Positions 8,574-62,377 are shown, numbered from the stretch's first letter. The stretch is 64,000 nucleotides of DNA from Candidatus Adlerbacteria bacterium (GCA_028286685.1 JAQBRA010000002.1:1073-65072); one strand, 5' to 3'. Program-made: numbers and translations. The notes: generated by a model not told the origin, from the sequence alone.

Positions 8574-9734
8574 ATGACACACATGGACGTTGCTCCAGGT
8601 CCGGATATCGTCAGTCGAGATACGGACCGAGTCGACACTTATCCCGCCTACTACTTCCTCGCACTCATTGTGCTTGCGGCGGCCTGGTTTCTGACAGGTC
8701 TCGTATTTTACGGGATACCCGTCGGATACGGCAGCTTAACGATCTACATGAGCACCGTCATCTGGGCTTTGGGAGCCGCGCACTTTGCGACCAGCTTCAG
8801 GATTGTAGAGCCTGACTACTTCGCTGGCGTCCTGGTGTTCGGAACGCCGACCGTTGTCGTGACTGGCAAACCGCTCTTGGTGCCCATGGGAATCTTTAAA
8901 GTCATAGAGATCTCCCGGGGCATCATCCAAATGGAGCTGCCCAACGAGCCGAATCTCATCTTCCGCAAAGAGGATGTAGAGATTGTTCCTCCTGGCATGT
9001 CACCCCCAATCCGGGTGACCTTCAAGAAGGGAGTGGCAGGCGACGATGGCTTTGATCCAAACGATCCGTTTGATGACAGGTCGACTCAAGAAGTGACTCC
9101 TATCATTCGCTTCAGGATTCAAGACGAAGAAGGGTTCTGGACGTTCTTCGTAAGGCTCGGAGGATTCGACGAAGCGCGCAAGCAAGCCGAAGACATGAGC
9201 ATCGCCGTTCTCCAGCAGTGGCTGACAGCACTCACTCTTCGGCAAGCTTTCGCGGGTATCGGAACAATCAACCGACATTACGACGATTACATCCGAGCGC
9301 AGACTAAAGGATGGGGCATCGAGATCGACAGTGCACACATCAAACTTATTGGCCTGTCGCACTCCTTCAATACAGCCATCCAGGATATCCCGCGCGCCAA
9401 AGCCGAAAAACTTGCTCGAACTTCTCGGGCAGAAGCTAAGCAGATTGAGCTCACGCGCGAAGGACTCGGCGAGGCTAATGCCAGAAAAGCACTTCTTTTT
9501 GCTGAAGCCTCTGGTCTTGAAGAGAAAGCGAAGTCACTTGGCGTAACCGGACACGACATGCTCGGTGCCGATACGGCCCGAGCGATCGGAGAGTCCGGCA
9601 ATATGATTATTGTCGGCGCTCAAGGCCTTACGGAAGCCGTTACCGCCGCGTTTGCGGCGGGAAAAGGCATGCAAGGAAAACCCAAACCCACACCCCCTGC
9701 CACTGAACCAGGCACACCACCCACTGGAGCATAG
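8574..9734 (+). CDS. SPFH/band-7 (stomatin/HflK-like) domain membrane protein with a C-terminal coiled-coil and a Pro/Thr tail
   Basis: Two N-terminal TM helices are followed by an SPFH core (VEPDYFAGVLVFGTPTVVVTGKPLLVPMGIFKVIEIS). A long helical region (AEAKQIELTREGLGEANARKALLFAEAS) follows. Confidence 0.6.
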   Translation: MTHMDVAPGPDIVSRDTDRVDTYPAYYFLALIVLAAAWFLTGLVFYGIPVGYGSLTIYMSTVIWALGAAHFATSFRIVEPDYFAGVLVFGTPTVVVTGKPLLVPMGIFKVIEISRGIIQMELPNEPNLIFRKEDVEIVPPGMSPPIRVTFKKGVAGDDGFDPNDPFDDRSTQEVTPIIRFRIQDEEGFWTFFVRLGGFDEARKQAEDMSIAVLQQWLTALTLRQAFAGIGTINRHYDDYIRAQTKGWGIEIDSAHIKLIGLSHSFNTAIQDIPRAKAEKLARTSRAEAKQIELTREGLGEANARKALLFAEASGLEEKAKSLGVTGHDMLGADTARAIGESGNMIIVGAQGLTEAVTAAFAAGKGMQGKPKPTPPATEPGTPPTGA

Positions 9735-10792: not shown

Positions 10793-11269
10793 ATGCAAAA
10801 GACCCTTATAACCACTGCCGTGTTGGCCGCGCTTTTTGCTCCTCTATCAGCTATAGCCGCCTCGGTACCCACCGGATACTCTTACGACCCGGGCTATTCC
10901 TACACGCCTGGATACTCATATACCCCTGGCTACTCTATCCCGTCCGGCCACTCTGAAAACTCAGGCACTTCTATATCGTCGGGCCAGTCAATCTCAAGCG
11001 GTTCATCCATACCGTCGGGCCACTCTATACCTTCCGGCTACTCTATCCCCTCCGGACACTCGATACCTTCCGGCCATTCCGTAGAATCGGGACACTCTAT
11101 ATCGTCCGGCCAGTCCATCCAAACCGGCCATTCTATACAGTCGGGTTACTCTATTAGCTCCGGACATTCCATACAGTCGGGCCGCTCTATTCAGACCGGA
11201 TACTCAATACCTTCCGGCCGCTCCATAGAGTCCGGACATTCGATAGAGGGAACAAAGCTCAGCTGGTAA
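10793..11269 (+). CDS. secreted His/Ser-rich protein made of about 20 tandem hexapeptide repeats (S-I-P-S-G-H-like)
   Basis: Signal peptide MQKTLITTAVLAALFAPLSAIAAS. Then SIPSGHSIPSGYSIPSGHSIPSGHSVESGHSISSGQSIQTGHSIQSG... encoded by 18-nt DNA repeats. Confidence 0.6.
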   Translation: MQKTLITTAVLAALFAPLSAIAASVPTGYSYDPGYSYTPGYSYTPGYSIPSGHSENSGTSISSGQSISSGSSIPSGHSIPSGYSIPSGHSIPSGHSVESGHSISSGQSIQTGHSIQSGYSISSGHSIQSGRSIQTGYSIPSGRSIESGHSIEGTKLSW

Positions 11270-11335: not shown

Positions 11336-11617
11336 TTAGCAAGGCAAATTGCCGCCAACCATAGTAGAGATAAGTTTTATGATTGCAATGGCGGAGACCA
11401 TGATAAACATGCCTCCCAGGCCCCACAGCATATGCTGTTTGCCCTCTTCTTTCTTGCCGGCCTCATTGCTTAGGCCCCACAGAAATTCCACAAGCCCCCA
11501 GACGAACACCAAAAGCCCTGCCGCGAATATGAGTGCGAGTAGCGGGTTTATAAACGCCTCGGTCAGCTTGCCGACGATGGTGCAGGTAGCGCTATTTGTA
11601 ACGGCAGCAGATAGCAT
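11336..11617 (-). CDS. small two-TM membrane protein, paralog 1 of 5 (pilin-like topology)
   Basis: Shares a helix-loop-helix core with the four upstream paralogs (L..L..VFxWGLV.FLWG ... WGL...F.MVS...I). Confidence 0.5.
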   Translation of the reverse strand: MLSAAVTNSATCTIVGKLTEAFINPLLALIFAAGLLVFVWGLVEFLWGLSNEAGKKEEGKQHMLWGLGGMFIMVSAIAIIKLISTMVGGNLPC

Positions 11618-11622
11618 GATTA

Positions 11623-12018
11623 TTATGGGGTATACCCGTCTTTACCGAAGAGAGGGCCGCTGCTATTGCCATACTGTATCTGCGGGGCTTTTCCTCGGGC
11701 ATTTTCATCGATACCGAGCGCTTCTTGCATAAGGGCAACAATACCCCAAACCGACACCATAACAAACAAGGTTATAAGGCCCCACTTCATCAGGTCCTTG
11801 CCCTTCTCGTGCCCGCTCTTGCTCGATGCCCCCCACAGGTAGCGCACCAAGCCCCAGAAGAACACGACCAGCGCTAGGGTAATGAGTATCGGTATGAGCG
11901 CTCCTATAAGACTCCCAAAAGCCCCTAAGAGGCTTTCAATAGGCGACAGGTTAAGTCCTTGGGCAGAGGCCCATGCGGGCAAAGCGAACAGGAGCAAAGC
12001 TGCAGACCTTTTTATCAT
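11623..12018 (-). CDS. small secreted two-TM protein, paralog 2 of 5 (VirB2/TrbC-pilin-like topology)
   Basis: Signal peptide ending AWASAQG. Then LIPILITLALVVFFWGLVRYLWGASSKSGHEKGKDLMKWGLITLFVMVSVWGIVALM. Confidence 0.55.
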   Translation of the reverse strand: MIKRSAALLLFALPAWASAQGLNLSPIESLLGAFGSLIGALIPILITLALVVFFWGLVRYLWGASSKSGHEKGKDLMKWGLITLFVMVSVWGIVALMQEALGIDENARGKAPQIQYGNSSGPLFGKDGYTP

Positions 12019-12372
12019 TTACGGTACGAGTGCTTTAGGAGAGAGGACATCTGCATTGCGCTGGACACCCAAAGCATCCTGGGCCAGGCGGACAATGCCC
12101 CAGACCGACACCATGACAAACAAAGTTACGAGACCCCACTTCATCAGGTCCTTAGCACCGGCGGTGTTTGACTTGCCGCCAGCGCCGTACAAGTAGCGCA
12201 CCAAGCCCCAGAAAAAGACAACGAGTGCCAAGGTGATGAGTATCGGAACCAAGGCGGCAACGAGGCGGCCTACGGCGCCAATAAGATTGGCCAAAGGCTG
12301 TAGGCTCTGAGCCGAAGCCGCAAGCGGCAGTGCTAAAGAAAGGGCTGATAGTGCGGCGAAGGTCTTTTTCAT
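12019..12372 (-). CDS. small secreted two-TM protein, paralog 3 of 5
   Basis: Signal peptide ending ASAQS. Core LVPILITLALVVFFWGLVRYLYGAGGKSNTAGAKDLMKWGLVTLFVMVSVWGIV is nearly identical to paralog 2. Confidence 0.55.
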   Translation of the reverse strand: MKKTFAALSALSLALPLAASAQSLQPLANLIGAVGRLVAALVPILITLALVVFFWGLVRYLYGAGGKSNTAGAKDLMKWGLVTLFVMVSVWGIVRLAQDALGVQRNADVLSPKALVP

Positions 12373-12455
12373 TAAAATAACTTAAACGGGTATGGCTCTA
12401 TTCTAGCAGGCCCCTGCTCTCTTTTGCTTTGCCGTGTGGATAACAAAGGGCCAGG

Positions 12456-12698
12456 TTAGGCCGGCAGGAATATCCCCTGTAGCAATTGCAGTATGCCAAA
12501 TATGGATACCAGCACAAACAGCGCCACCAGGCCCCAGCCCAACAGCTCTTTTTGGCCCTGCTTGTCATGCGAGTCGCCGGACAGGTACAAGAACCGTACT
12601 GCGCCCCATAAAAATATGGCCAGCGCTACCGAGCCCAAGAGAGCCACCAGGACGTTTATAACGCTAATTATCTGGCCAACGAGGACGGAAAAAGTCAT
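12456..12698 (-). CDS. small two-TM membrane protein, paralog 4 of 5
   Basis: AIFLWGAVRFLYLSGDSHDKQGQKELLGWGLVALFVLVSIFGIL has the same motif arrangement. Confidence 0.5.
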   Translation of the reverse strand: MTFSVLVGQIISVINVLVALLGSVALAIFLWGAVRFLYLSGDSHDKQGQKELLGWGLVALFVLVSIFGILQLLQGIFLPA

Positions 12699-12701
12699 AT
12701 A

Positions 12702-13148
12702 TTAGCGGCCACAGAACTGTATCGTACCGCTGGTATCGAGCGTTTGGATAGTTGCCGAAATGATGCTGGCCAAGGTCCAAGCGCCCAGGAATATGGCAAT
12801 GCCTAAAATGACAAACTTAAAGTTCCTTTTAGCGTCGTCGAGCCCTGTCGCGCTGCCACGGGCCAATATAAACCTGAAACCCGACCATACTAAGAACAAG
12901 ACCGCGATCGGCATGCCTATCGCCATAATAATGTTGAGCAGGGCCTTGACCAGGTTGCAGAAATCATCAACGCCCAGCGGGTTACACAACTTAAAAGTAC
13001 CTCCTTGTGATCCGCAATCAGAGCCTGTGGGAACGGAATTTTGATATGTCCCTGTCTGGACAGAGTTTGCCTGCGCCAAAGCAAATTGTGGAATAAGTAT
13101 TATTCCACAAAGGATGAGCGAGGTTGAGATAAATTTATAAAATTTCAT
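12702..13148 (-). CDS. small secreted two-TM protein, paralog 5 of 5, with a Cys-containing N-terminal extension
   Basis: Signal peptide, then SDCGSQGGTFKLCNPLGVDDFCN, then the conserved core AVLFLVWSGFRFILARGS...FVILGIAIFLGAW. Confidence 0.5.
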   Translation of the reverse strand: MKFYKFISTSLILCGIILIPQFALAQANSVQTGTYQNSVPTGSDCGSQGGTFKLCNPLGVDDFCNLVKALLNIIMAIGMPIAVLFLVWSGFRFILARGSATGLDDAKRNFKFVILGIAIFLGAWTLASIISATIQTLDTSGTIQFCGR

Positions 13149-14440
13149 TGATTTGGCAAAAGCTGGCGCATAGCCTGGGCGGCATCAAAAACGGCCTGCT
13201 CGGGGTCGGTGCGCCCCGATGAGACAGATTCTATCATTGTTTTAAAGATGTTATTGGTCGCCGAGGCGTTCGGGTCATTCCACGAGCGCGAGATAAGCGC
13301 TGACTGTACGAACACCTCTCCGGCGGCAGAAGCCGAGGTGTCTATGGGCACATCGCGGCGCACCGGCGGCAAGGTGGTCTGCCCCGATACGGCAGCAATG
13401 CCTGCGGCCGAGGTAAGCTTTTGGGCCACCGCCAAAGCTCCGGCCGGGTTCTGCGCCCCGCGAGCAATGGAGAGCCCCGCGATATTGCCGGAGGTAATGC
13501 GGGATGAAGCGCCCATAAGCTGGGGCAGCACCGCAACGCCAAAGCGCAGGTTGGGATTGCGCTCCGCTATGGAGCGGTACTCGCTGGCAAAGCCGAAGTA
13601 AACTGCAACGTCGCCCGAAGCAAATGCGTTGTACGAGTTGGGCAGCGAGCGGTTCCACGAGTAGGTGGTTTTAGAAGGGTTGGCAAAATCGGTATAAAAC
13701 CGCAAGGCTCCGGCAGCCGGCGTGTCGCTCTGGTTTTCAGGCTTGGAACCTAAGACAGTGGTAAGCGCGCCCGCAGCATTGCGACTCGTGACAAAGTCTC
13801 CGGTCTGCATGAACAGGGCCGACAGGACCGCCTTGCCGTTGTTTATGTTGTCCCAGGTGCCCAGCGCCACCGCCGACTTGCGGACCGAGCCGGCAGAGAG
13901 CGAGGTTATCTTGGGCGCCAAGGTAATGAGATCATTCCAATACTGGGGCGGCTGGGCGATGCCAACCCCGGTAAAGGTGTCGCGGTTCCAGTACATGACC
14001 AAGGGGTCTATGGTAAACGGCAAGGCCAAGATGCCTCCCGGGGTCAAAAACAGCTGGCCCTCGTCAACAAAGGACGACATGAACGTGCTTTGCGTCACGG
14101 CGCTGTACGGGATAGGCACTATCTTGTCGGAAAGCCCGCCCATGCTGCTCTGCGAGAGGAAGACCAGGTCCGGACCGGTGCCTGCTGCAATGGCATTTAC
14201 CAGGTCAGACTCGTACGTGGCCGGGCTGTGATAGTAATACTGCACATCCGAGAGGCTCTTATCCGCGCTAGACACCTCGCCTAGGACCGAGTCCATGGTC
14301 GACTGGTCGATAGTGCCCCAGACAATAACCGTGCCTATTCCCCCTTGGCCGCCCACACCCCCAAAAAGAGCGAAGACGCCGATACCGATGACGACAAGGG
14401 CTACGAAAATGCCGGTAACTATGGTTTGGAAGCTGGACAT
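13145..14440 (-). CDS. extracellular solute-binding protein (ABC-transporter SBP family 1-like), N-terminally TM-anchored
   Basis: N-terminal TM helix, then the typical SBP_bac_1 alpha/beta pattern (GPDLVFLSQ..., WNRDTF..., ...DPEQA). It is co-directional with the five small genes and overlaps the first one. Confidence 0.65.
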   Translation of the reverse strand: MSSFQTIVTGIFVALVVIGIGVFALFGGVGGQGGIGTVIVWGTIDQSTMDSVLGEVSSADKSLSDVQYYYHSPATYESDLVNAIAAGTGPDLVFLSQSSMGGLSDKIVPIPYSAVTQSTFMSSFVDEGQLFLTPGGILALPFTIDPLVMYWNRDTFTGVGIAQPPQYWNDLITLAPKITSLSAGSVRKSAVALGTWDNINNGKAVLSALFMQTGDFVTSRNAAGALTTVLGSKPENQSDTPAAGALRFYTDFANPSKTTYSWNRSLPNSYNAFASGDVAVYFGFASEYRSIAERNPNLRFGVAVLPQLMGASSRITSGNIAGLSIARGAQNPAGALAVAQKLTSAAGIAAVSGQTTLPPVRRDVPIDTSASAAGEVFVQSALISRSWNDPNASATNNIFKTMIESVSSGRTDPEQAVFDAAQAMRQLLPNQ

Positions 14441-14446
14441 GCGGTA

Positions 14447-14983
14447 TTACTTTTTCCTTAGTATAAGCCCCCAATGGTAGGCGCCTGCGGGGATATCCTC
14501 TGCCTGACTGAATCCGGCGACCTCGAATATTTTCTTAGCCTCCACAGCGGACACTATCTGGTCGGGATGCGGCCCCAAGCCGCCGTGCGAGTCGCCCCAG
14601 TCGATAAGCATGAGGCGGCCGGCACGGCGCAGCACGCGGGCAGCTTCTGCGGCTGCAGCAGCCTTGTCCTCGGTCGAAAAGAGCCCGTTGGCCAAAATGC
14701 AAAAATCCATGGTGCCTTCGGGCAAATGCGTGCCGTTAAGCTTTTCTATCGTGCCGCGCACAACCTCTATGTTGCGCAAGCCCTCGGCCTCGGCCAGATT
14801 CTTAAGCCGCGGGAGCATGTCCTGATGGGCATCTACGGCCCACACCTGGCCCTGGGCCCCTACCGCGCGGGCAGCCGCGCGGGCAAAAAAGCCCGAGCCA
14901 GCGGCCAAGTCGGCCACGCGCGAGCCTTCGCTTATGTGGCACGCCGCCACTGCTGCCTGCGGATTAAGAAACGAACTCTCCAT
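14447..14983 (-). CDS. class I SAM-dependent methyltransferase
   Basis: Motif I VADLAAGSGFFARAAA. The start was set at the internal Met (MESSFLN). Confidence 0.6.
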   Translation of the reverse strand: MESSFLNPQAAVAACHISEGSRVADLAAGSGFFARAAARAVGAQGQVWAVDAHQDMLPRLKNLAEAEGLRNIEVVRGTIEKLNGTHLPEGTMDFCILANGLFSTEDKAAAAAEAARVLRRAGRLMLIDWGDSHGGLGPHPDQIVSAVEAKKIFEVAGFSQAEDIPAGAYHWGLILRKK

Positions 14984-15032
14984 TGCGTTCAGTATATATC
15001 CAAAAAAGCGCCGCCCAGAAAGTCTGGGCGGG

Positions 15033-33524: not shown

Positions 33525-35423
33525 TTACGGCAACGACTGGCGGCCCTGTGTGGCCCCTACGACGGGTATCCCCTTCTGTTTTATATAATTGACTATGCTC
33601 TGGAACATGCTGGGCGTTACGGAGTAGAGACTGTTGTTAGTGTCAATATCGTGGAACGCGAGTATGAGCCACGTACGCGTCTGCGCCGCAGTATCGACCC
33701 ACTGCTTGACCTGGTCGAGCGTCACGGTATTACGCAGCTCCTGGTACTCGAGCTGGTACGGGTCGGAGTTGGTGGACACGTAGCCGCTTATGGTCGCGGC
33801 CGCACTGGTAAAGCCTGCGTCTCGCACGACCTGGAGCGTCGTCGCGTCGTACTCGCCGTACGGGTACGCGAACGAAAGCACCGACCCCACGCTCCACCCC
33901 AAAAGATCCTGCCGCGACCCGGCTATCTCGTCCTGCTCCTGCTGGGGTGTGAGCGCGGTCAAGTGCGCATGCGTGCGGGTGTGCGCGCCTATCTCGTGCC
34001 CGCGAGCCGCCAGGTCCTGCACTTGCGCCTTGGACACAAAGCCCGGAAAGCCATTGTCGGCCGTCTCGCGCGAGATAATATAGAACATCCCCTTGAATCC
34101 GGCCGTATCGAGCATGGGCGCGGCCGCGGAGTACTGGCTGCTTAAGCCGTCATCGAAGCGGAAGGTCACCGCCCCGGTCAAGAATATGCCGCTCGAGGCC
34201 GAAGAGGCGGTTATGGCTACGTTGTCGAGCGATAGCGTACCGTTGCCTTTGATAAGGTGGAAGACTCTCGTCTTGGCCGCAGCAGATGGCACCGAAAGAG
34301 CGGCCGTGGCAGTAGTCCACGACGAGGCGGCAGGCAAGGTCTTGAGGTCCGCGTAGAAAAAGCTGCCGTCGGCGCGCTGGAATTCTGCGGTCAAGATTGT
34401 CGGCACGTTCGCCATATAGCTGTCCGAGTAGGTATACGCGCCCGGTGAGAGCGCCACCTGCTCGTGCACCCACTTGGCGTCGCCGCTTGCGTAGCCCGAC
34501 ATAGCTATCTGCGCGCCATTGCCGCTCTGTCCCGAGACGGGATATGTAAACACGCGCGTATTGCTGCCATAGCCGCCGCGGGCCCAACGCGCTGGGAGCC
34601 CCCCGGAGCCCGCGGTCTCGAAGTCGCCGTTTAGCACCGAGTTCTGGGCGGACGGAGGCGGCGGGGACGGCGGCATGACCTCGCGCAGGACGTAGTCGTC
34701 GGTATCGAGCGTGCCGTTGCTTTTAATAAGATGGAAGATCGTCGCTGACACCGTGCCCGCGGGCGCCGCAAATTGCACCGTGATGTTCGTGTATGCGGCG
34801 CTCGCGGGCAAGGTGGCAACGTCCTTATAAACGAACGTGCCGCCCGAGAGCGCAAAGCGGATAGTGACTATGCTTGCGGCCGTGCTTTTGTAGGTGTCCG
34901 AAAATTCGTAGGTCTTGCCGCCTGTTACGGGCATGTCGTCCGGGTACCACTTGGCGTCGCCGCTTGCGTAATTGGATAGTGCGACCTCAACGCCACTGCC
35001 ACTTTTGCCCGGCACGGGGTACGTAAGCGCTCGCGTGCTGCTGCCGTAGCCGCCCTTGTGCCAGCTGGCTGGCAGGCCGGGCTGACCGGCAGTCTCAAGC
35101 CCGGGATTAGGCACCAGATTGGGGCCAAAGCTGGAAGCTGCCGGAGCGAGCGCGGCGGGAGCCGCCGCGGGCGCTGTCTTGTTGCCGCTCGGCAGCGTAG
35201 GACTCGGTATAGGCGCCTTTCTGTCTATGTTGGGCTCTTGCGCGGTTTCGCGGTGCGGTATGAGTATGGGCCCGGCGCGCTGCAGGTTAGGGTCCGCGGC
35301 GCTTTCTTGGTTTGGGACCGGAGCGCCGAAGGAGACCCCGAGCGGCGCCACCAGCGCCACCATGACAATAAGCGTCGCTATTTTCTTTCGCCCGCGCCAC
35401 CAATTGTTTACATTGTCTTTCAT
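33525..35423 (-). CDS. secreted polysaccharide deacetylase (CE4/NodB domain) with two N-terminal tandem carbohydrate-binding-like repeats
   Basis: The C-terminal NodB block TFRFDDGLSSQ...HTRTHAHL is present. Two repeats of about 130 aa (LPASWHKGGYGSSTRALTYPV... and LPARWARGGYGSNTRVFTYPV...) occupy the N-terminal half. Confidence 0.65.
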   Translation of the reverse strand: MKDNVNNWWRGRKKIATLIVMVALVAPLGVSFGAPVPNQESAADPNLQRAGPILIPHRETAQEPNIDRKAPIPSPTLPSGNKTAPAAAPAALAPAASSFGPNLVPNPGLETAGQPGLPASWHKGGYGSSTRALTYPVPGKSGSGVEVALSNYASGDAKWYPDDMPVTGGKTYEFSDTYKSTAASIVTIRFALSGGTFVYKDVATLPASAAYTNITVQFAAPAGTVSATIFHLIKSNGTLDTDDYVLREVMPPSPPPPSAQNSVLNGDFETAGSGGLPARWARGGYGSNTRVFTYPVSGQSGNGAQIAMSGYASGDAKWVHEQVALSPGAYTYSDSYMANVPTILTAEFQRADGSFFYADLKTLPAASSWTTATAALSVPSAAAKTRVFHLIKGNGTLSLDNVAITASSASSGIFLTGAVTFRFDDGLSSQYSAAAPMLDTAGFKGMFYIISRETADNGFPGFVSKAQVQDLAARGHEIGAHTRTHAHLTALTPQQEQDEIAGSRQDLLGWSVGSVLSFAYPYGEYDATTLQVVRDAGFTSAAATISGYVSTNSDPYQLEYQELRNTVTLDQVKQWVDTAAQTRTWLILAFHDIDTNNSLYSVTPSMFQSIVNYIKQKGIPVVGATQGRQSLP

Positions 35424-35677
35424 ACCTACATATCGTCTTTAACATACGGACGCGATTTCGCGTAAGTGTAGTGCGTATGCCGTGATAGGACTGTGAACAA
35501 AGGCTATGGACAAAGCACGCATGCCGTAGCACAGCGCAATAATCTGAAGATGAAATATGGCGCAACCGTGCGATATACGATTCTTCATTAAGTTTCATCG
35601 TCCTTTCACTATTGACCATATTCACCGAGTCTTAAAGAATATGCAGGTGCGAAGCTTACCCGTTATGAATTCCAAGA

Positions 35678-37438
35678 TTGCAACCCATGCGTATTACAAA
35701 AGCCGCGCTCGTCGCGACTCTATCCCTCAGTGTGCTACTGCCGACGTTCGCGTCGGCGCAGACAGCTTCGGTCTATTACCCGTTCAACAGTGCGGGCACG
35801 CTCTATCAAGCGAGCTCTGCCGAAAAAAGCCCCAGTTCCTACTTCTGGCTTAAAAGCGGCGCCAAACTCGTCATCAAAGATGGTGTGGGCAACACGATAC
35901 AAGGCGCCCTTCCCGCCGACGATCCGTGGAGAAAGACCTATGCATCGACCCTCGCCACGGCCTCCGACAATGGCGCGCACCCGCAGAACACCTTCCTCCT
36001 GCTAACCCGGGCCGCATACAAGAACACCTCCGCACAGATATATGTGCGCCGTACGGCCGACAACCTTACAAACCCGGCCAATCGACAGCCCTACAACGGC
36101 GAGTCGATCCTCGCGCGGTACCAGAGTGACGGAACCTTCTACTATGCCGGCATCCGAGCCGATGGCACGGTCGTCATCAAAAAGAAATTGAACGGCGCAT
36201 ACCAAACGCTCTCGCAGAAGAAGGTGCTCTCTGGCACGTATAACGCAAGTTCAAATCCTAACCTCATCCCTAAAAACACCTGGATAGGACTTAAGCTCAC
36301 GATTGAAGACACCAGCGCAGGCCCGCAACTTACCCTCTTTACCGATGTGAGTAAGACCGGCGCGTGGAGCAAGGCGCTCAGCGTTATCGACGACAAGGCG
36401 AAATTCGGCAGCCCTATCACGGGCGCGGGTGTCGTCGGCATCCAAACCGATTACGCGGACGCGCAGTTCGACGACTTCCTCTTCTCGGAGATAGCGGCAA
36501 CATCGACCCCAGCCCCGACGCCAGCACCCACACCTACCCCTACTCCCACCCCCACTCCGACCCCGACGCCAGCACCCACACCTACGCCGACGCCTACCCC
36601 CGCACAGGGATATGACGCTACCGTGCTCGGCGGCAAGCCAGTCATGTACCTTGCAATGAACTCGTTCAGCACGGGCAAAGAGTCGGACCTAAGCGGCCAT
36701 AACAACGCCGGCGCCTACAAAGGCGGCACGCCCACGACGGCCGCGCTCCCTAACGGGGAGACGGCAGCCAACTTCAACGGCTCGAGCCAGTACCTGACCG
36801 TGCCGTCGAACGCCTCGCTCTCGATCCCGACTACCGGCAAATTGACGTGGGAGGCGTGGATCCGGCCCGATACGTTCCAGTTTTCCAACGCCAGCAGCGA
36901 TGGCTATGTCGACTGGATGGGCAAATGCGCAAACTACTCGCCGACGTGCGAGTGGGAGGCGCGCATCTACGGCGCATCGACCGCACAAGGCCGCCCCAAC
37001 CGACTCTCAGCCTACGCGTTCAACCCATCGGCCGGTCTCGGGAGCGCGGCCGACTGGCAGCCGCAGGCGGGCCTCCTGCAGGCGGGCAAGTGGCTCCACG
37101 TGGTCGCAGAATACGACCTATCGACGACGCCATCTGGGTGCTCCTCCGCTTACCCCGGATCGATCAACATCTGGGTCAACGGCATCAAGCAGAACTTCGC
37201 CGCACATGCACCGACCGGATGCATGAGCCAGTACAAAATATCCCCCAAAGCCGGCAGTTCGCCGCTTACTATCGGGACGATGGCGCTCGACACCTGGTTT
37301 AAGGGTGCGGTCGGCAAGGTCGCCGTGTACAACCGACTGCTGACGCAGACTGAAATCAATGCGCACTTCACTGCAATGACAGGCGCCAATCCTTCCGGCT
37401 CGTGCGCATCCACCTGTACCGCCGCGCTCGTGCAGTAA
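35678..37438 (+). CDS. secreted two-domain protein: an unassigned N-terminal domain, a Pro-Thr linker, and a C-terminal LamG/concanavalin-like domain
   Basis: Signal peptide, then a domain paralogous to the 41769..42605 protein (shared HPQN.F.L.TR and YYAG.R.DG..VIKKK.NGAY.TL). A (TP)n linker follows, then a C-terminal domain with a LamG_3-like pattern. Confidence 0.55.
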   Translation: MQPMRITKAALVATLSLSVLLPTFASAQTASVYYPFNSAGTLYQASSAEKSPSSYFWLKSGAKLVIKDGVGNTIQGALPADDPWRKTYASTLATASDNGAHPQNTFLLLTRAAYKNTSAQIYVRRTADNLTNPANRQPYNGESILARYQSDGTFYYAGIRADGTVVIKKKLNGAYQTLSQKKVLSGTYNASSNPNLIPKNTWIGLKLTIEDTSAGPQLTLFTDVSKTGAWSKALSVIDDKAKFGSPITGAGVVGIQTDYADAQFDDFLFSEIAATSTPAPTPAPTPTPTPTPTPTPTPAPTPTPTPTPAQGYDATVLGGKPVMYLAMNSFSTGKESDLSGHNNAGAYKGGTPTTAALPNGETAANFNGSSQYLTVPSNASLSIPTTGKLTWEAWIRPDTFQFSNASSDGYVDWMGKCANYSPTCEWEARIYGASTAQGRPNRLSAYAFNPSAGLGSAADWQPQAGLLQAGKWLHVVAEYDLSTTPSGCSSAYPGSINIWVNGIKQNFAAHAPTGCMSQYKISPKAGSSPLTIGTMALDTWFKGAVGKVAVYNRLLTQTEINAHFTAMTGANPSGSCASTCTAALVQ

Positions 37439-37537
37439 GGTTACCGACCTAAAAATCGACTCATCCCCCGTTCAGCGCAGTGCAACAGGCCATGGTTCAC
37501 TATCAGTTCAGCGTACTACGGTACAGTACGCCGTGAT

Positions 37538-38923
37538 ATGGAAGCTCAATCTGCGACAGAGAGAATAGCGGGAAAGGACGACAAGAAAGGACCGAAATCC
37601 CGCATCGACAAGCCGCGGAACGGGCAGGAAGATGAGCACCCACCCCCTCGCCTACTGAACGTAGCAGTGGTCGGCGTCGGCTATGTCGGCCTACCGCTCG
37701 CGCTCCTGGCCCGCGCAAAGGGCTACCGGGTGCGGGGCATCGACATCGACGAGCGCAAGCGCGCAGCTGTGCGTGACGCAGCCGTGGCCGACCTGGACGC
37801 CTCCTTTACGGAGGCGTTGCGCGTGCAGCCCTTAGAGGTCTCAGGCCATTTCGGCCCGGTGCGCAGCGCGAACATTGTCATCGTATGCGTGCCGACCCCG
37901 GTCGACGACGAGCATAACCCGGACCTCTCCTTGATCGAGGGAGCTGCACGCCGCGTCGGGCGCAACCTGCACCAAGGCGCACTCGTCATACTGGAGTCGA
38001 CCGTGCATCCCGGCACCTGCGACGAGATCTTTATCCCCATTTTAGAGAAAGCGTCGGGCCTGCGCGCCGGAAAGGATTTCGGCGTAGCCCATTGCCCGGA
38101 ACGCATCAACCCGGGAGACAAGGTTTGGACGATAGAACGCATCCCCCGCGTCGTGGGCGCCACGACCGAAAAGGCGCTTAGCTTGGCGGCCAGCTTCTAC
38201 CGCTCGATACTCAGCGCGTCGGTCCATGAGATGGAGAGCATTAAAGAGGCCGAGGCGGTCAAGGTGGTTGAGAATTCCTTTAGGGACATTAACATTGCCT
38301 TCGTCAACGAGCTCGCGATGTCCTTCAGCAAGCTTGGCATCGACGTCAGCCACGTGCTGAGCGGCGCCGCGACGAAGCCTTTCGGCTTCCTGCTCCATCA
38401 GCCGGGGTGCGGTGTTGGAGGGCATTGCATACCGGTCGACCCGTACTACCTTATACGGTACGCCAAGCGCAACGGATTTTCGCACCGCTTCCTGTCGCTC
38501 GCACGCACGATAAACGAAGGCATGCCCGCATATACAGTCTCGCTCGTCGAGACAGGCCTGCACTCGCTCGGACGCACGTTGAGCAACTCGAGCGTGGCGC
38601 TCTTGGGCCTCTCTTATAAAGCCAACGTAAGCGACCTGCGCGAGAGCCCGTCGTTCGAGATTAAGGAACTGCTTGAGAGTAAGGGGGCACGGGTGCGCAC
38701 CTTCGACGAGCATGCGCCCGACCGATCGACGACGCACTCGCTCGCCGAGGCGCTCGACGGGGCCGATGCCGCAATAGTCGCGACCGCCCATGCGGAGTTC
38801 GCTGGACTGCCCCCCTCGGTGTTCGCCTCGCGCGGCGTGCGCGTGGTGGTCGACGGACGCAACTGCCTCCAAAAGGAGCAGTACCTGCGGGCGGGCATCC
38901 TTTACCGCGGCATAGGCCGCTAA
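37538..38923 (+). CDS. nucleotide-sugar dehydrogenase (UDP-glucose/GDP-mannose dehydrogenase family)
   Basis: Rossmann motif VAVVGVGYVGLPLA. The catalytic Cys region GGHCIPVDP is present. 461 aa. Confidence 0.8.
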   Translation: MEAQSATERIAGKDDKKGPKSRIDKPRNGQEDEHPPPRLLNVAVVGVGYVGLPLALLARAKGYRVRGIDIDERKRAAVRDAAVADLDASFTEALRVQPLEVSGHFGPVRSANIVIVCVPTPVDDEHNPDLSLIEGAARRVGRNLHQGALVILESTVHPGTCDEIFIPILEKASGLRAGKDFGVAHCPERINPGDKVWTIERIPRVVGATTEKALSLAASFYRSILSASVHEMESIKEAEAVKVVENSFRDINIAFVNELAMSFSKLGIDVSHVLSGAATKPFGFLLHQPGCGVGGHCIPVDPYYLIRYAKRNGFSHRFLSLARTINEGMPAYTVSLVETGLHSLGRTLSNSSVALLGLSYKANVSDLRESPSFEIKELLESKGARVRTFDEHAPDRSTTHSLAEALDGADAAIVATAHAEFAGLPPSVFASRGVRVVVDGRNCLQKEQYLRAGILYRGIGR

Positions 38924-38927
38924 GGCA

Positions 38928-40211
38928 ATGGAACCACTACCCACGCAGCGACGGCTCGCATTCCTGCAGGACGCAGGGCCCCTGTTTATGTTCTTCCTCG
39001 TGGTTTACTTCATCATCATTCTGAAGACCGCGACTGTCTCCTCCATCGTCGACCACTGGTTCTTTGGCTTATACAGTCTGCTCATCACGACCTACATCCT
39101 CTCACGCTTCCTGCTGTCGCATTTCCATGTAGTGCCCCGCGCGGACCCCGCCTACCGCCCGACCGTCACTTTCGTGGTGCCGGCCAAGAACGAGGAGGAC
39201 AACATACGCGAGACTATGCGCAAGTTCAGCGAGGTCGACTACCCGCCCGAACTTATCGAGGTGATAGCTATCAACGACGGCTCCACCGACCGGACGCTTG
39301 AGGAGATGCGCGCAGCTGCGCTTGAGATACGTGCGCGCATCGCGCGCGTCGAGGTTATCCACTGGGGCCACAATCGCGGCAAGCGCCACGGCATGGCGGA
39401 AGGAGTACAGCGCGCGCGGCACGAAATCATCATCTTCATCGACTCCGACAGCTTCATCGAGCCCGACTGCGTCACCCACCTGGTAAAGTACTTCGCCGAC
39501 CCGGCAGTCGGCGCGGTCTCGGGGCATACCGACGTCCACAACGACCAGGCAAACTTCCTCACCCGCATGCAGGCCATACGCTACTACCTGGCGTTCCGAG
39601 TCTACAAGGCGGCGGAGTCGGTATTCGGCGCGGTAACCTGCTGCCCAGGCTGCTGCAGTGCATACAAGCGCGCCTACCTTATACCCATACTCGACGAGTG
39701 GCTTACCCAGCGCTTTTTGGGCGGCCAGTGCACCTTTGGCGACGACCGCTCGCTCACCAACTTTATCCTGCGGAAATTCGAGGCGGTCTATGCGCCCGAG
39801 GCGCGAGCGCGCACCGTCGTGCCCGAGAAGTTCGCCACGTACGTGCGCCAGCAACAGCGCTGGAAAAAGTCGTGGATACGCGAGACTTTTATCGCATGCG
39901 GATTTATGTGGCGCAAGCATCCGCTCGCGGCGATATCCTTCTATACGTACGTTTTTTTGGCGTTCGCCTCTCCTATCGTGTTTGCCCGCGCGATGATCTG
40001 GCATCCGCTTACGACCGCAAGCGTGCCGCTTGTGTACCTCGCGGGACTCTTCCTCATGCTCATGCTGCACGGGCTCTACTACCGCCTGTACATGGGCCCG
40101 CGAGCGTGGCTCACGGGGATAATGAGCTTTTGGTTTAATTCCGTGGTGCTTATGTGGCAGCTCCCTTGGGCACTCATCACGCTCAAGGACTCCCGCTGGG
40201 GCACCCGTTAA
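38928..40211 (+). CDS. processive family-2 glycosyltransferase of the HasA/NodC/chitin-synthase type (hyaluronan-synthase-like)
   Basis: Blocks GKRHGMAEG, DSDSFIEPD, LTRMQAIRY, CPGCCSAYKR, GDDRSLTNF, QQQRWKKSWIRE and SRWGTR align with the HasA/NodC signature motifs. The protein has multiple TM helices. Confidence 0.75.
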   Translation: MEPLPTQRRLAFLQDAGPLFMFFLVVYFIIILKTATVSSIVDHWFFGLYSLLITTYILSRFLLSHFHVVPRADPAYRPTVTFVVPAKNEEDNIRETMRKFSEVDYPPELIEVIAINDGSTDRTLEEMRAAALEIRARIARVEVIHWGHNRGKRHGMAEGVQRARHEIIIFIDSDSFIEPDCVTHLVKYFADPAVGAVSGHTDVHNDQANFLTRMQAIRYYLAFRVYKAAESVFGAVTCCPGCCSAYKRAYLIPILDEWLTQRFLGGQCTFGDDRSLTNFILRKFEAVYAPEARARTVVPEKFATYVRQQQRWKKSWIRETFIACGFMWRKHPLAAISFYTYVFLAFASPIVFARAMIWHPLTTASVPLVYLAGLFLMLMLHGLYYRLYMGPRAWLTGIMSFWFNSVVLMWQLPWALITLKDSRWGTR

Positions 40212-40216
40212 CTCCC

Positions 40217-41767
40217 ATGAGATTCGCACGATTTTCACTGCAAAGGCTCGGCCCGATAGTTTTTGCGGGAGTACTGCTCATGGTCGCGACTGTCTCGACG
40301 TTCACCTGGAAGAGCGCCCACTACGGGCAGACGCCGTTCTTCAACTGGCTGGTCCTCATGGTCGAAGAACGCACGGTAGCGGCGGCGTTCAATGGGTGGC
40401 ACTCCCTCGGCGATCTGTCAGCGCTCCTGGCGCCAAAAAAGACACAGGCGCAGCTCGCGAGAGCTGTCCCCGTGCTGGCCTATCACCGCCTGACGCTCAC
40501 CGAGGAGGCCGGCCAGCTTCCGGTGGCGCGCTTCATGGACCAGATGGAGACGCTGCACCGCGCCGGCTGGCACACCGCCACACTCGAGGAGTACCGGCAG
40601 TTCGTGCAGGGCACGCGCACGCTCCCCGAGCGCACCTTTCTCCTGACGTTCGACGACGGGGCGCAGCAGAGCTACTACCCCGTCGACCCCATACTCAAGA
40701 CGCTCGGTTACAGCGCGGTACAGTACGTCATCGTATCCGCCAGCGAAACGCCCAAAAGCATCTACTACCTATCGCCCGAGCAGATAAGCGCCATGCTCTC
40801 AACCGGGCGCTGGGAGATAGGCTCGCACTCCTTTGACGCACACCACACCTACCCCACCGACCCCGCAGGCGGGACCGGCATCTTTTATACCGACAAACTC
40901 TGGATGCCCACGCAAGGGCGCCTGGAGACCGACGCGGAGTTCCTCGCGCGCGTGCACGACGATCTCTTGCGCGCGCGCCAGGCGCTCGAAGCGCGCTACG
41001 GCGTAACAGTCGACACGTTTGCCGTCCCCTTTGGCGGAGAGACCGGACACCGCGCGGCGGACAACTACGCCGGTGGCAGCGATATAACGCTCGCGGAAGC
41101 GCGCAGGCTCTACGACTTCGTGTGGCTGCAGACCGACCGGCGCGACTTTACCTTCAATTACCCCAGCTACCCCTCTATACTCGGCAGGCGCATACACGTC
41201 GACTACGACTGGGAAGGCGAGACGCTCAAGACATTTATGGAGGGTGGAGTCCCCAAGGCGCTGCCATATAGGGATAACTTTGCCGTCGACAGCGGCTGGC
41301 GGCACTCCTGGGGCAGCGTCCAGCCCATCGGGTCGCTCGAGCTCGGTGCGGGCCCGCAGGATACCAGCGCGGGGAGCGTGCTGGACGGGAGTCTCTTGTG
41401 GAGCGCGTACCAAGCGGAGGCGACGGTCAATTGGGAACACGGGTACGCGGTGATCATGGGCGCGGTGCGCGACGCCCACACATACCGGTCGTGCTCGTTC
41501 TCTCCCGGCGAGGTCGAAATACACGACACCAGCGGCACCAGCATCATCCCGCTTGCCAAGCGCGCGGAGTCTGAGATCCAATACGGACAGGGGGTCAAGC
41601 TGGGTATCCGCGTGGAAGATGCCGCTATCTCCTGCTTGTACAACGGCCATGTCCTGCTCTCCGCGCCGACTGGCCGCAACGAGGGCGGCGTCGGCATACA
41701 GACTTGGGCGCCTGAACCAGGCACGGCGAGCCTCCTGGTGACCAATTTTCTCGCAGACCCGCTGTAA
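40217..41767 (+). CDS. membrane-anchored polysaccharide deacetylase (CE4/NodB domain) with a C-terminal beta-rich domain
   Basis: NodB blocks FLLTFDDGAQQSY, RWEIGSHSFDAHH and FAVPFGGETGH. The start was set at MRFARFSL, which overlaps the GT2 stop. Confidence 0.7.
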   Translation: MRFARFSLQRLGPIVFAGVLLMVATVSTFTWKSAHYGQTPFFNWLVLMVEERTVAAAFNGWHSLGDLSALLAPKKTQAQLARAVPVLAYHRLTLTEEAGQLPVARFMDQMETLHRAGWHTATLEEYRQFVQGTRTLPERTFLLTFDDGAQQSYYPVDPILKTLGYSAVQYVIVSASETPKSIYYLSPEQISAMLSTGRWEIGSHSFDAHHTYPTDPAGGTGIFYTDKLWMPTQGRLETDAEFLARVHDDLLRARQALEARYGVTVDTFAVPFGGETGHRAADNYAGGSDITLAEARRLYDFVWLQTDRRDFTFNYPSYPSILGRRIHVDYDWEGETLKTFMEGGVPKALPYRDNFAVDSGWRHSWGSVQPIGSLELGAGPQDTSAGSVLDGSLLWSAYQAEATVNWEHGYAVIMGAVRDAHTYRSCSFSPGEVEIHDTSGTSIIPLAKRAESEIQYGQGVKLGIRVEDAAISCLYNGHVLLSAPTGRNEGGVGIQTWAPEPGTASLLVTNFLADPL

Positions 41768-41768
41768 C

Positions 41769-42605
41769 ATGCTTATGCAGTTCTATGGCGTACTATCGGC
41801 GATGATCCTTTTAGCCGCAGTGGCGCTCCTTTTTGGCGCGGATCGAGTCGGCACGCCCGTGGCTACGGTCGCCTCGCCGTATGTCTACTTGTTCGGAGGG
41901 AACGGCGCACTGGAAGAGGCCAGGAATACGTCCAGGACCGCGAGCCCCTACTGGTGGCTAAACTCCGGCGGCAGAATCGAGATTGCCGGCTCCCTGGGCA
42001 GCACGATGCAGGGCGACGCGCCGCAAGGTGACCGATGGCGCACGGCCTACGCCGCCTCCAACCCGACCGATACCGACCAGGGTCTCCATCCGCAGAACAT
42101 CTTCCGTCTCGTGACGCGCAGCCTGTGGGGAGACGCGAGCCAGGAGGTCGAGCTGCGCCTGGTTGCCGACCAGAAGAGCCAAAGCCCTAATCGCAACGCG
42201 TCGAACGGGCTCTTTCTTATGAGCCGGTACGTGGACGGCGATACGCTTTACTACGCGGGCCTGCGCGTCGACGGCATGGCCGTGATAAAGAAAAAATACA
42301 ACGGCGCGTATTATACGCTTGCCGAGGCGCCGGCCTTCCCCGGCGCCTACGACCGCGACAAAAACCCCAATCTCCTGCCGCACGGGGAATGGCTCTCGAT
42401 ACGGTCCGAGACCGCGCATACTGACGGCGGCATCGCCATACGCCTATACCTGAAGCGGGAGTCGGACACCAATTGGCTGAAGCTCCTCGAGGCGATTGAC
42501 CGCGGCCAGAGCGGGACGCCCGCCATCAGGGGCCGCGGGCGCGGCGGCATCCGCACCGACTTTATGGACGTGCAGTTCCGCTCGTACCGGATGGAAAATT
42601 TGTGA
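41769..42605 (+). CDS. secreted protein paralogous to the N-terminal domain of the 35678..37438 protein
   Basis: YWWLNSGGRIEI...HPQNIFRLVTRS...YYAGLRVDGMAVIKKKYNGAYYTL parallels the upstream paralog. Confidence 0.5.
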   Translation: MLMQFYGVLSAMILLAAVALLFGADRVGTPVATVASPYVYLFGGNGALEEARNTSRTASPYWWLNSGGRIEIAGSLGSTMQGDAPQGDRWRTAYAASNPTDTDQGLHPQNIFRLVTRSLWGDASQEVELRLVADQKSQSPNRNASNGLFLMSRYVDGDTLYYAGLRVDGMAVIKKKYNGAYYTLAEAPAFPGAYDRDKNPNLLPHGEWLSIRSETAHTDGGIAIRLYLKRESDTNWLKLLEAIDRGQSGTPAIRGRGRGGIRTDFMDVQFRSYRMENL

Positions 42606-60599: not shown

Positions 60600-60930
60600 A
60601 AAGATGGGGACAGCAAGGCGAAACCCCGGCAGTTAGCCGGGGTCCTCGCATTTAGCGCGCGCGTCTGTAAGCCGAGTTCTGTCGTGGGCTGCAATTTATC
60701 TGGGCCCAGAGTCGCCCCTGGGCTCGAGCGGCACTCCGCAGTTGCCTGCGGCACGGCCTTGCACCCGGGTAGGGATTTTGCCGTTTCACCCGAACTAAAT
60801 CGGTTCGTCACTGTTCGCACCCCTTACGACCGCTAATATCGTACGGCAGGCGTTACCTGCTACCTTGCTACTGCAGTTGCCCGCAGTGGGAGCTCGGACT
60901 TTCCTCTCCGTCTTGCGACAGAGCTGCAAC
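60600..60930 (-). ncRNA. rnpB: RNase P RNA (bacterial type A)
   Basis: The minus strand contains GAGGAAAGTCCGAGCTCC (P4 5' strand), AGCAGGTAACGCCTG, GGGTGAAACGGC and CACGACAGAACTCGGCTTACAG (P4 3' strand). The ends are approximate. Confidence 0.75.
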
Positions 60931-60944
60931 CAAACGCGCTTTTA

Positions 60945-61424: not shown

Positions 61425-61685
61425 TTAGGAGAGGTGCTTGGAGACAAGCTTGGTCATCTCGAACATGTTTACCATGTCCTTGCCGCCGAAGACCTTCTTG
61501 AGGTTCTCGTCAGCGTTGATGTTGCGCTTGTTGGTAGGGTCCTGGAGATCGTGCTTCTTGATGTATACCCAGAGAGCCTTAACGACCTCGGAGCGGGGCA
61601 TAGGGCCCTTGCCCACTACCTCGGCGAGATCATCGCTGATCTGCATCGGCTTCATAAATGCGGAATTTGCTTTTGCGGGTGCCAT
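61425..61685 (-). CDS. SWIB/MDM2-domain protein
   Basis: ISDDLAEVVGKGPMPRSEVVKALWVYIKKHDLQDPTNKRNINADENLKKVFG is the typical SWIB domain. Confidence 0.7.
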   Translation of the reverse strand: MAPAKANSAFMKPMQISDDLAEVVGKGPMPRSEVVKALWVYIKKHDLQDPTNKRNINADENLKKVFGGKDMVNMFEMTKLVSKHLS

Positions 61686-61783
61686 AAGATTTGTATGTAA
61701 ACTAACTATTTCTAAACGGTTAATAAGACCTGTCTATAGTATACCAGCCCTGCTTAGGCGCAAGGGGGCCTGTTTTACAACTG

Positions 61784-61868
61784 CGGAGGCGGTGAGATTC
61801 GAACTCACGGTGGGTTGCCCCACGCCGCCTTTCCAAGGCGGTGCACTAGACCGCTATGCGACGCCTCC
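61784..61868 (-). tRNA. tRNA-Ser (GGA), class II
   Basis: Reverse complement reads GGAGGCGTCGCATAGCGGTCTAGTGCACCGCCTTGGAAAGGCGGCGTGGGGCAACCCACCGTGAGTTCGAATCTCACCGCCTCCG. Confidence 0.75.
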
Positions 61869-62377
61869 AGTGCTCATACAAAATACCCTTATTTCGGCCA
61901 AAGATAAAGGCCGGATTTCTCCTTCGAGGAATCCGGCCTGCCGCGTAGCAGCTATTTGTGGCGTTTGCCGAAGGTGGTCCGATTCTTCTGGCCGCCCGCT
62001 GACGTCTGATAGATTGTCCGTTTCGGCCTGTCGTCCACCCGAGCCTTCGGCTGCTGGGTCGGCGCCGGGCGCTCATACAGCTTGGCGAAGTCCGACATTG
62101 TCGGGCTTTGTCGAGCCGTAGTTTCGTGCGCGGGCAGAAGCTGCTCGCCTTCCATCCGACCAGAAGGCTCAAACGCCTTCGAAGGCCGCGGTATAAAACC
62201 GGCGTTTCGCGTATTGATGATCGATTTTTCGGTCACGCGGCCGCCGCTGCGCCGTTCAAAAACCACCTGCACCATAGTAAGGTCCCCGCTTTAGCCTCTC
62301 CCCCACGGAGAGGCTTACTTCATTAATAGTAGCATATTTGACCCAAAAAGTCAAGCACTACTATAACAGCCTTTCAA

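Follow-up and report, generated by a model that had tools for sequence, protein, structure and literature searches.

A solute-binding protein gene heads a conserved array of five VirB2-type pilin genes in Candidatus Adlerbacteria and related Patescibacteria

Tandem arrays of genes for VirB2-like pilins are known from the Patescibacteria, a group that makes up a large share of bacterial diversity and whose members appear to live on other microbes. In Southlakia epibionticum, the one species tested genetically, six essential PF18895 genes, SEML1_0014-0019, follow the gene for VirB6 (Wang et al. 2023; PMC10633639). A survey by Quinonero-Coronel et al. (2025) reported 441 arrays of 2–11 genes, for which host versatility was suggested, and VirB4 in 2,417 of 3,035 Patescibacteria assemblies (PMC12102498). 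In cultured Paceibacteria, genes for type IV secretion system (T4SS) pilins belong to the top five, by expression level, of the genes that carry a signal peptide (PMC10936435), and a review has speculated that uptake from the host passes through the pilus as a conduit (PMC12857230). Here we analyse an operon of a Candidatus Adlerbacteria bacterium (GCA_028286685.1) within a 64,000-nucleotide stretch, JAQBRA010000002.1:1073-65072, that is called the window below. Positions 11336–14440 hold six co-directional minus-strand open reading frames (ORFs): the gene for a family-1 solute-binding protein (SBP) and, directly downstream, five genes for small two-helix proteins, named p148, p80, p117, p131 and p93 in order of position (positions 1 to 5). 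A first-pass annotation made from the sequence alone had described an SBP gene followed by five tandem minus-strand genes of 80–148 codons, and all six ORFs were found where it had placed them. It had also guessed a reduced-genome or episymbiotic organism, in keeping with the source, a Candidatus Adlerbacteria metagenome-assembled genome (MAG) from the Patescibacteria, or candidate phyla radiation. Its statement that the locus could be assigned to no described system did not hold: the small genes are of a known kind, VirB2-like pilin arrays in this phylum having been described in the 2023 and 2025 reports. The link between SBP and pilins is mentioned neither in the four papers cited above nor in the other literature searched, and the SBP-headed, methyltransferase-preceded, order-conserved five-gene form of the array, its separation from virB4 and the recurrent fusion of SBP and pilin appear to be undescribed there.

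The SBP gene and the small genes are conserved together across relatives. Scanning species-representative genomes with the SBP confirmed at least 532 relatives, of which the best 80 loci, with SBPs 28–71% identical to that of the window, were analysed. Nearly all of these come from Patescibacteria MAGs (Adler-, Kaiser-, Taylor-, Nomura- or Azambacteria, or Paceibacterota). Linkage was counted in the 60 loci with at least 3 kb of downstream DNA. A pilin gene lies immediately 3′ of the SBP gene in all 60; it begins within 60 nt of the SBP stop codon in 57, and three or more pilin genes follow in 58, five being the commonest number. The mean number of pilin genes per 3 kb is 4.70 downstream of the SBP gene and 0.03 upstream, and the linkage of the SBP to the small genes is thus essentially absolute. 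Moreover, among the 76 loci with enough downstream sequence for the stop–start junction to be read, the SBP stop codon overlaps the next start codon in 18 and an ATG lies no more than 20 nt beyond it in 49 more. In the window itself the p148 start overlaps the SBP stop (ATGA), and such overlaps would indicate translational coupling between SBP and pilin.

In several relatives the two genes have become one. A single 597-residue protein combining SBP and position-1 pilin, with no signal peptide between them, is encoded at one of the best 80 loci, and a dedicated search of NCBI and JGI assemblies yielded five more (P0221, P0253, P0258, P0260 and P0344), so that, with P0220, six SBP::pilin-1 fusions of 579–659 residues are known. 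They share one plan: behind an N-terminal helix come the SBP, a linker of 40–60 residues, a Cys motif and, last, the two-helix hairpin. When the SBP domains are placed in a tree, all of the fusions except P0344 fall into two separate clades, and the ancestor that these clades share is common to all 120 sequences; P0344 represents a third fusion lineage (38% identity). The fused gene of locus L085 is followed by four more pilin genes, so that the total is still five, and that of locus L086 by three, after which the contig ends. The fusions come from at least five assemblies and from three lineages, and it is therefore unlikely that they are assembly artefacts. Fusion is also topologically sensible, as the SBP is outside the membrane and so is the N-terminal extension of the pilin. 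As genomic evidence, such repeated and independent fusion speaks strongly for the SBP and the position-1 pilin working as a complex.

The five small proteins can be aligned over a 66-residue core, in which a short charged loop joins two hydrophobic helices, and a hidden Markov model (HMM) built from them matches only these five ORFs in the window (E = 1e-29 to 1e-48), which bears out the first-pass description of five paralogous helix-loop-helix proteins. Core identity is 12–21% between p148 and the other four, 32–44% for most of the remaining pairs and 74% for p117 and p131. Against PF18895 (T4SS_pilin; gathering cutoff 26.6 bits) the scores are 35.1 bits for p148, 30.5 for p80, 29.3 for p117, 27.7 for p131 and 23.7 for p93; four of the five are thus above the cutoff, and p93, just below it, nevertheless matches the five-member HMM with E = 2e-32. 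PF04956 (TrbC/VirB2; cutoff 27.9 bits) is reached marginally by p148 (28.0 bits); p131 scores 13.7 bits and the other three have no match. Among NCBIfam models there are only weak matches, all to one pilin-like conjugal transfer family. The profile searches therefore place these proteins in the VirB2/TrbC-type pilin family whose topology had been recognised beforehand, and in no unrelated, well-characterised family. Homologous arrays on independent JGI and NCBI contigs likewise carry precomputed PF18895 matches (those of L082, L085 and L086 are annotated). Sec-type signal peptides can be read from the sequences of p148 (...ALAQA), p117 (...ASAQS) and p131 (...ASAQG), matching the first-pass count of three proteins with cleavable ones; p80 and p93 have no such leader, and the two-helix plan is common to all five in the paralog alignment.

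In the position-1 protein, p148, the signal peptide leads into a Gly/Ser/Thr-rich spacer of low complexity, which is followed by a Cys motif, a VirB2-type hairpin and a tail with a near-invariant Cys, an order that includes the Cys-containing N-terminal extension noted earlier. An AlphaFold2 model shows a signal helix (residues 2–24), a disordered spacer and a hairpin of helices 63–95 and 100–140, with a predicted local distance difference test (pLDDT) score of ~90 for the hairpin. All 99 of the 99 p148 homologues carry PF18895, and most p148 orthologues also have a precomputed PF04956 match. Cys64, just before helix 1, and Cys146, in the C-terminal tail, are at least 90% conserved in Adlerbacteria-type p148 orthologues; both would lie outside the cell, where a disulfide between them could close the hairpin. 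In other loci the position-1 protein carries further domains: He_PIG, Big_9, Cadherin_5 and fn3 in L021 and L064, and the lysozyme-like SLT or SLT_3 in L080 and L081. These Ig/Fn3/cadherin-like and SLT domains are adhesion and cell-wall-cutting domains, respectively, and they fit an envelope or contact structure.

The order of the paralogs is conserved as well. When five-gene arrays are compared, the best match of a pilin in another array is at the same position in 77, 65, 42, 66 and 79% of cases for positions 1 to 5. Proteins of position 3 find their best match as often at position 4 as at position 3, in keeping with a later duplication. In the window the pair at these positions, p117 and p131, is separated by many synonymous differences despite its 74% core identity; we therefore rejected recent gene conversion, and these changes argue for an old duplication kept under purifying selection. 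In signal peptide, cysteines and length, too, the architecture is particular to each position: a protein at position 1 nearly always has both a signal peptide and cysteines ahead of helix 1, and one at position 5 is short. Because each paralog tends to have a same-position orthologue in other genomes, the five are probably separate subunits of a single heteromeric assembly rather than antigenic variants that can stand in for one another.

The SBP itself matches PF01547 (66.6 bits) and PF13416 (64.7 bits). Its AlphaFold2 model (pLDDT 86.2) has an N-terminal hydrophobic helix (residues 3–27) followed by a MalE-like two-lobe fold, for which Foldseek returned maltose-binding protein and other sugar SBPs with template modelling (TM) scores of ~0.7 at 16–19% identity. 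Carbohydrate SBPs were the only matches when the SBP family profile was run against the PDB sequences. Over its ~22 hydrophobic residues, the N-terminal helix is most likely an uncleaved membrane anchor. An alignment of MalE to the SBP reached the N-terminal lobe only, where MalE Glu111 corresponds to the family-invariant Asp145, and an Rfam scan of the window found tRNAs and RNase P RNA only, with no riboswitch as a clue to the ligand.

Neither a transporter nor a secretion apparatus adjoins the operon. The first-pass annotation had seen no ABC permease or ATPase and no VirB4 or VirD4 in the window, and Pfam scans of 46 window ORFs agreed with it on all four. phmmer searches with E. coli MalF, MalG and MalK gave zero matches among the window ORFs, and MalF and MalG matched nothing in 1.215 Mb of related loci; MalK-like ORFs in the related loci were found only in L019 and L024, ~7–8.5 kb from the SBP gene. 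In none of the best 80 loci do permease or ATPase genes adjoin the SBP gene. No large ATPase is recurrent within 10 kb of the operon in these loci. The large ORFs in the flanks of the related loci encode housekeeping proteins (FtsH, ClpB, RecJ, RNase J and tRNA synthetases), with the exception of one DUF87 protein in L021. There, a second cluster at ~14.9–19.8 kb, 4.9–6.9 kb downstream of the SBP gene, consists of three pilin-like genes followed by a gene for a 552-residue DUF87/HerA-type ATPase that may be VirB4- or VirD4-like. At ~7 kb, it makes L021 the only one of the 80 loci with a T4SS-type ATPase within 10 kb of the SBP operon.

In the reading we favour, to which we give a probability of roughly 55%, the locus encodes a heteromeric VirB2-type assembly of five subunits, the first of which holds a carbohydrate-binding SBP head, and which needs a T4SS encoded elsewhere. 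The operon would be the Paceibacteria version of the VirB2/TrbC-type pilin array of Patescibacteria, made up of methyltransferase, SBP and five pilins. Each pilin would be a membrane hairpin with both termini outside and a loop inside that is mostly net-basic, p80 excepted, the topology of T4SS pilins before assembly, and the five might be compared to a major pilin plus minor pilins. p148 would serve as the adaptor, its extracytoplasmic N-terminal extension presenting an accessory domain. Here that domain would be supplied by the translationally coupled SBP and in at least three other lineages by a fused SBP, and elsewhere it would be one of the Ig/Fn3/cadherin-like or lysozyme-like domains described above. 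The SBP would then be a ligand-binding head that recognises a glycan of the host envelope or captures a host-derived sugar at the contact site, rather than the receptor of an adjacent ABC permease, and the filament or conduit would be built by VirB4/VirB6 machinery encoded elsewhere in the genome. The analysis shows the family membership, the conservation of operon and order, the fusions, the fold of the SBP and the lack of a permease or VirB4 nearby; a complex of SBP and pilin in the unfused species, a glycan as ligand, the formation of a filament, dependence on a T4SS and any role of the methyltransferase are inferred. The surface uptake or attachment function put forward in the first-pass annotation would be strengthened by the recurrent SBP::pilin fusions.

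Several observations weigh against such an assembly. The first-ranked PDB match of the p148 model in Foldseek is VirB2 of the Agrobacterium T-pilus (8exh_A; 25% identity over 72 columns), and this match is not significant (E = 4.4, probability 0.18); a profile search of the PDB sequences gives noise only. No VirB4, VirB6 or VirD4 was found among the scanned ORFs of the window and none is recurrent within 10 kb in the best 80 loci, and a CUT1-type permease and ATPase could be encoded elsewhere in these genomes. No PF18895 protein has been experimentally shown to form a filament. The maltose contacts of MalE, Trp62, Asp65 and Arg66, are not conserved in the SBP. Finally, the hydrophobic helix of the SBP resembles a permanent anchor, and it would be hard for an anchored SBP or a three-helix fusion to be carried out of the membrane when a pilus is extruded. 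As the SBP looks permanently anchored, the pair of SBP and position-1 pilin may sit in the membrane as a base or platform and not at a distal tip, and an anchored SBP fits such a membrane-embedded part better than it fits a tip adhesin.

The same anchor is the starting point for an account with neither pilus nor T4SS, in which the five proteins, with ten helices among them, would form a new kind of SBP-dependent membrane channel, transporter or sensor that works directly with the SBP and has VirB2-like hairpins where ABC permease subunits would otherwise be. It is unlikely in our view. In its favour, the SBP is apparently permanently anchored by helix 3–27, the fusions are three-helix proteins, the number of subunits (about five) and their order are conserved, and neither VirB4/VirB6 nor an ABC permease is nearby. 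A conserved stripe along the anchor (Phe4, Gln5, Phe12, Gly19 and Phe23) suggests helix–helix packing, but it is weak evidence, and the anchor as a whole is of only average conservation, ranking 253 of 402 windows. Moreover, the small proteins match T4SS pilin profiles and no transporter family, the operon encodes no energising component, and position-1 domains of adhesin or cell-wall-lytic type suit an envelope-spanning or contact structure better than a solute channel. A different possibility is that the SBP simply serves a CUT1-type ABC importer as its receptor, the permease and ATPase genes lying elsewhere, and that its adjacency to the pilins reflects inherited order or co-regulation alone, without a physical or functional tie. 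Its fold and sequence family are those of a canonical sugar SBP, monoderm bacteria not uncommonly have orphan SBP genes, and the whole neighbourhood is syntenic, so that the order may partly be inertia. However, fusion of SBP and pilin-1 in at least three lineages is hard to explain without a shared function, the start–stop overlaps indicate translational coupling, no MalF- or MalG-like ORF occurs in the 1.2 Mb of loci sampled, and the linkage holds at every one of the 60 loci at SBP identities of 28–71% while other neighbours vary. We therefore regard an ordinary ABC receptor as quite unlikely.

A pool of interchangeable pilin variants, serving antigenic or host-range variation, has been proposed for the arrays of other Patescibacteria classes (PMC12102498). 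The same has been suggested for Bartonella and Anaplasma, and the high divergence of the paralogs (12–44% core identity) would suit it. For the locus described here it seems very unlikely, given the orthology by position across genomes, the stable gene number with its mode of five, the separate architecture of each position and the signs of purifying selection, rather than recent conversion, in p117 and p131; the paralogs thus read as fixed structural components and not as antigenic variants. Scarcely credible, finally, is the identification of the small proteins as holins, bacteriocins or immunity proteins, the alternative offered in the first-pass annotation, which has in its favour a generic resemblance alone, that of small proteins with two hydrophobic helices. 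We rejected it: no holin, bacteriocin or immunity family appears among their matches in Pfam and NCBIfam at E ≤ 1, where pilin profiles do match, the context is housekeeping chromosome without phage, lysis or bacteriocin biosynthesis genes, and the five-gene set is conserved across a whole bacterial class.

The conserved, translationally coupled and repeatedly fused pairing of SBP and first pilin has consequences for both experiment and annotation. The notion of a pilus that serves adhesion or uptake, vague so far, becomes accessible to definite experiments, which offers a direct handle on pilin function, and annotators have grounds for not assigning this SBP by default to an ABC transporter. 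A bolder and distinctly doubtful extension is a permease-free nutrient device, in which the head on, or fused to, pilin-1 takes glycans or sugars from the host envelope and passes them on through a T4SS-related channel into a cell without the usual importer; if true, it would for the first time tie the essential pilins of Patescibacteria mechanistically to feeding on the host.

The coordinates of the operon and its 5′ flank are collected in the table.

Table. Features of the SBP–pilin operon and its upstream boundary (positions counted from the first letter of the window)
Feature	Position	Strand	Size	Description
SBP	13145-14440	-	431 aa	MalE-like family-1 solute-binding protein, N-terminal hydrophobic helix
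p148 (position-1 pilin)	12702-13148	-	148 aa	PF18895; PF04956 marginally above cutoff
p80 (position-2 pilin)	12456-12698	-	80 aa	hairpin alone, without signal peptide
p117 (position-3 pilin)	12019-12372	-	117 aa	signal peptide, hairpin, short C-terminal tail
p131 (position-4 pilin)	11623-12018	-	131 aa	signal peptide, hairpin, ~30-aa C-terminal tail
p93 (position-5 pilin)	11336-11617	-	93 aa	short hairpin protein, last gene of the array
Methyltransferase	14447-14983	-	178 aa from ATG at 14983	class I, dependent on S-adenosylmethionine (SAM), small, cytoplasmic
Terminator-like hairpin	15011-15031	-	9 pairs, 7 G-C, then T run	consensus scan, pattern match only

The gaps among the pilin genes are 0–5 nt, except for one of 83 nt between p80 and p117. 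Upstream, the gene for the methyltransferase ends 6 nt ahead of the SBP start; its ORF extends to a TTG at 15064. The terminator-like hairpin closes an upstream gene of 116 codons and sits just ahead of the methyltransferase start. Its place directly before that start points to the hairpin as the likely 5′ boundary of a transcription unit in which the methyltransferase is followed by the SBP and the five pilins. The first-pass annotation had the order of the genes right and let the operon start at the SBP; the first gene is probably the methyltransferase, one gene earlier. This protein scores 57.6 bits with Methyltransf_25, 53.7 with Methyltransf_11 and 49.1 with Ubie_methyltran and stays below every NCBIfam cutoff, so that it remains a generic class I SAM enzyme. 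In most of the best 80 loci the SBP is directly preceded by a homologue of 170–210 residues, itself usually right after gyrA, and such a homologue is also found in L082, L085 and L086, the shared synteny being Lactamase_B_3, gyrA, methyltransferase, SBP, pilins and IF-2. The window is ordinary chromosome, with genes for GyrA, IF-2, LepA, MurJ, FtsA, FtsZ, a tRNA synthetase, 11 tRNAs and RNase P RNA. The public NCBI record calls the SBP and every one of the pilins 'hypothetical protein', and it gives JWL87_25 (12702–13148, minus strand) as a protein of only 95 aa (P0123), which leaves off the signal peptide, the spacer and the cysteine motif.

Two neighbours are convergent on the end of the array. 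A gene for an SPFH/Band_7 membrane protein, with a small gene upstream of it, occupies 8574–9734 (plus strand) in the window and 13423–14478 in L082, a relative with 56% identity, and these genes are conserved neighbours within the Adlerbacteria-like group. Between it and the array, at 10793–11269 (plus strand), lies a gene for a secreted protein of 158 aa with a signal peptide. Nearly all of this protein consists of ~17 copies of a Ser/Gly-rich, SGHSIP-like unit of six residues (an 18-nt repeat in the DNA), and it has weak matches only, to serine-rich and collagen-like adhesin families; a gene for 159 aa takes the same position in L082. Some names attached to the relatives call for care. A typical SBP–pilin operon occurs in a MAG named Patiriisocius, a flavobacterium (L074, JBLHQB010000022.1), on a contig that is probably mis-binned, and many third-party annotation (TPA) MAGs titled 'uncultured Candidatus Saccharibacteria' encode SBPs 69–75% identical to the Adlerbacteria protein, names that look like placeholders.

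Elsewhere in the window, a cluster at 33525–42605 resembles those for surface polysaccharides, with genes for two polysaccharide deacetylases (632 and 537 aa), a Laminin_G_3/concanavalin-like protein, a UDP-glucose dehydrogenase and a chitin-synthase-like family-2 glycosyltransferase. The RNase P RNA at 60652–60942 (minus strand) is apparently reduced, with 291 nt against a model of 367 positions and a score of 104.8 bits against a gathering cutoff of 100 bits. The ORFs at 6805–7980 and 61438–62121 (both plus strand) have no family match and overlap tRNA-Leu (7013–7098) and tRNA-Ser (61783–61868), respectively, and they are probably not real genes, at least at full length. Two further observations concern proteins of the related loci. 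In L018, from a Patescibacteria MAG, 2288–5107 (minus strand) encodes a 939-aa protein with MVP_shoulder (79.8 bits) and Vault_3 (39.5 bits) matches, unusual in bacteria, and in L021, 3681–7160 (plus strand) encodes a class I tRNA synthetase of 1159 aa with a His_Phos_1 domain inserted mid-protein.

Among better-known systems, a fixed and ordered set of small paralogous subunits with distinct roles, encoded in one operon and one of them bearing an adhesive or receptor module, is found in the GspH-I-J-K proteins and other minor pilins, which offer an analogy. The subunits of type IV pili and type II secretion systems have an unrelated fold and machinery, with the type IV pilin N-terminal helix and processing by a prepilin peptidase. 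SBPs that lack a permease of their own and are functionally tied to a T4SS also have precedents in PrgZ/TraC of enterococcal conjugative plasmids and in ChvE of Agrobacterium. PrgZ is a family-5 peptide binder that captures the pheromone for its conjugation system and passes the ligand to the chromosomal Opp permease, and sugar sensing by ChvE through the kinase VirA switches on the vir genes. To our knowledge, neither is encoded in an operon with pilin subunits or fused to them.

With the CUT1 sugar SBPs, such as E. coli MalE, the Thermococcus protein TMBP (1eu8) and a Thermotoga protein (5ci5), the Adlerbacteria SBP shares its fold and the families PF01547 and PF13416. It differs from them in its low sequence identity, in the loss of the Trp62, Asp65 and Arg66 contacts, in having no adjoining permease or ATPase and in its linkage to pilins. 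The likeness to Agrobacterium VirB2 and RP4 TrbC lies in the two-helix hairpin, the long leader and the PF04956 cutoff that p148 marginally reaches. VirB2 and TrbC are cyclised head to tail, whereas the position-1 pilins instead have near-invariant cysteines that could form a disulfide reminiscent of that cyclisation, and the hosts here are monoderm.

The closest relatives remain the arrays of Southlakia and other Patescibacteria. Like them, the Adlerbacteria array consists of tandem, divergent two-helix proteins of PF18895 (some also of PF04956), many with Sec signal peptides, encoded on the chromosomes of monoderm, ultra-small hosts. The Southlakia array stands inside a T4SS cluster, directly after VirB6, and has no SBP. 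Southlakia also encodes an apparently orphan family-5 peptide SBP, SEML1_0634, beside secG and a holin-like gene, and this gene is scored as essential (PMC10633639 supplement), a second instance of a free-standing SBP that matters to a Patescibacterium. The Adlerbacteria array, in contrast to the Southlakia array, is headed by an SBP and a methyltransferase and lies near gyrA, with no VirB4 or VirB6 within 10 kb. Unlike the Southlakia array, moreover, the SBP-headed arrays show orthology by position, and in several lineages their SBP has been fused to the first pilin.

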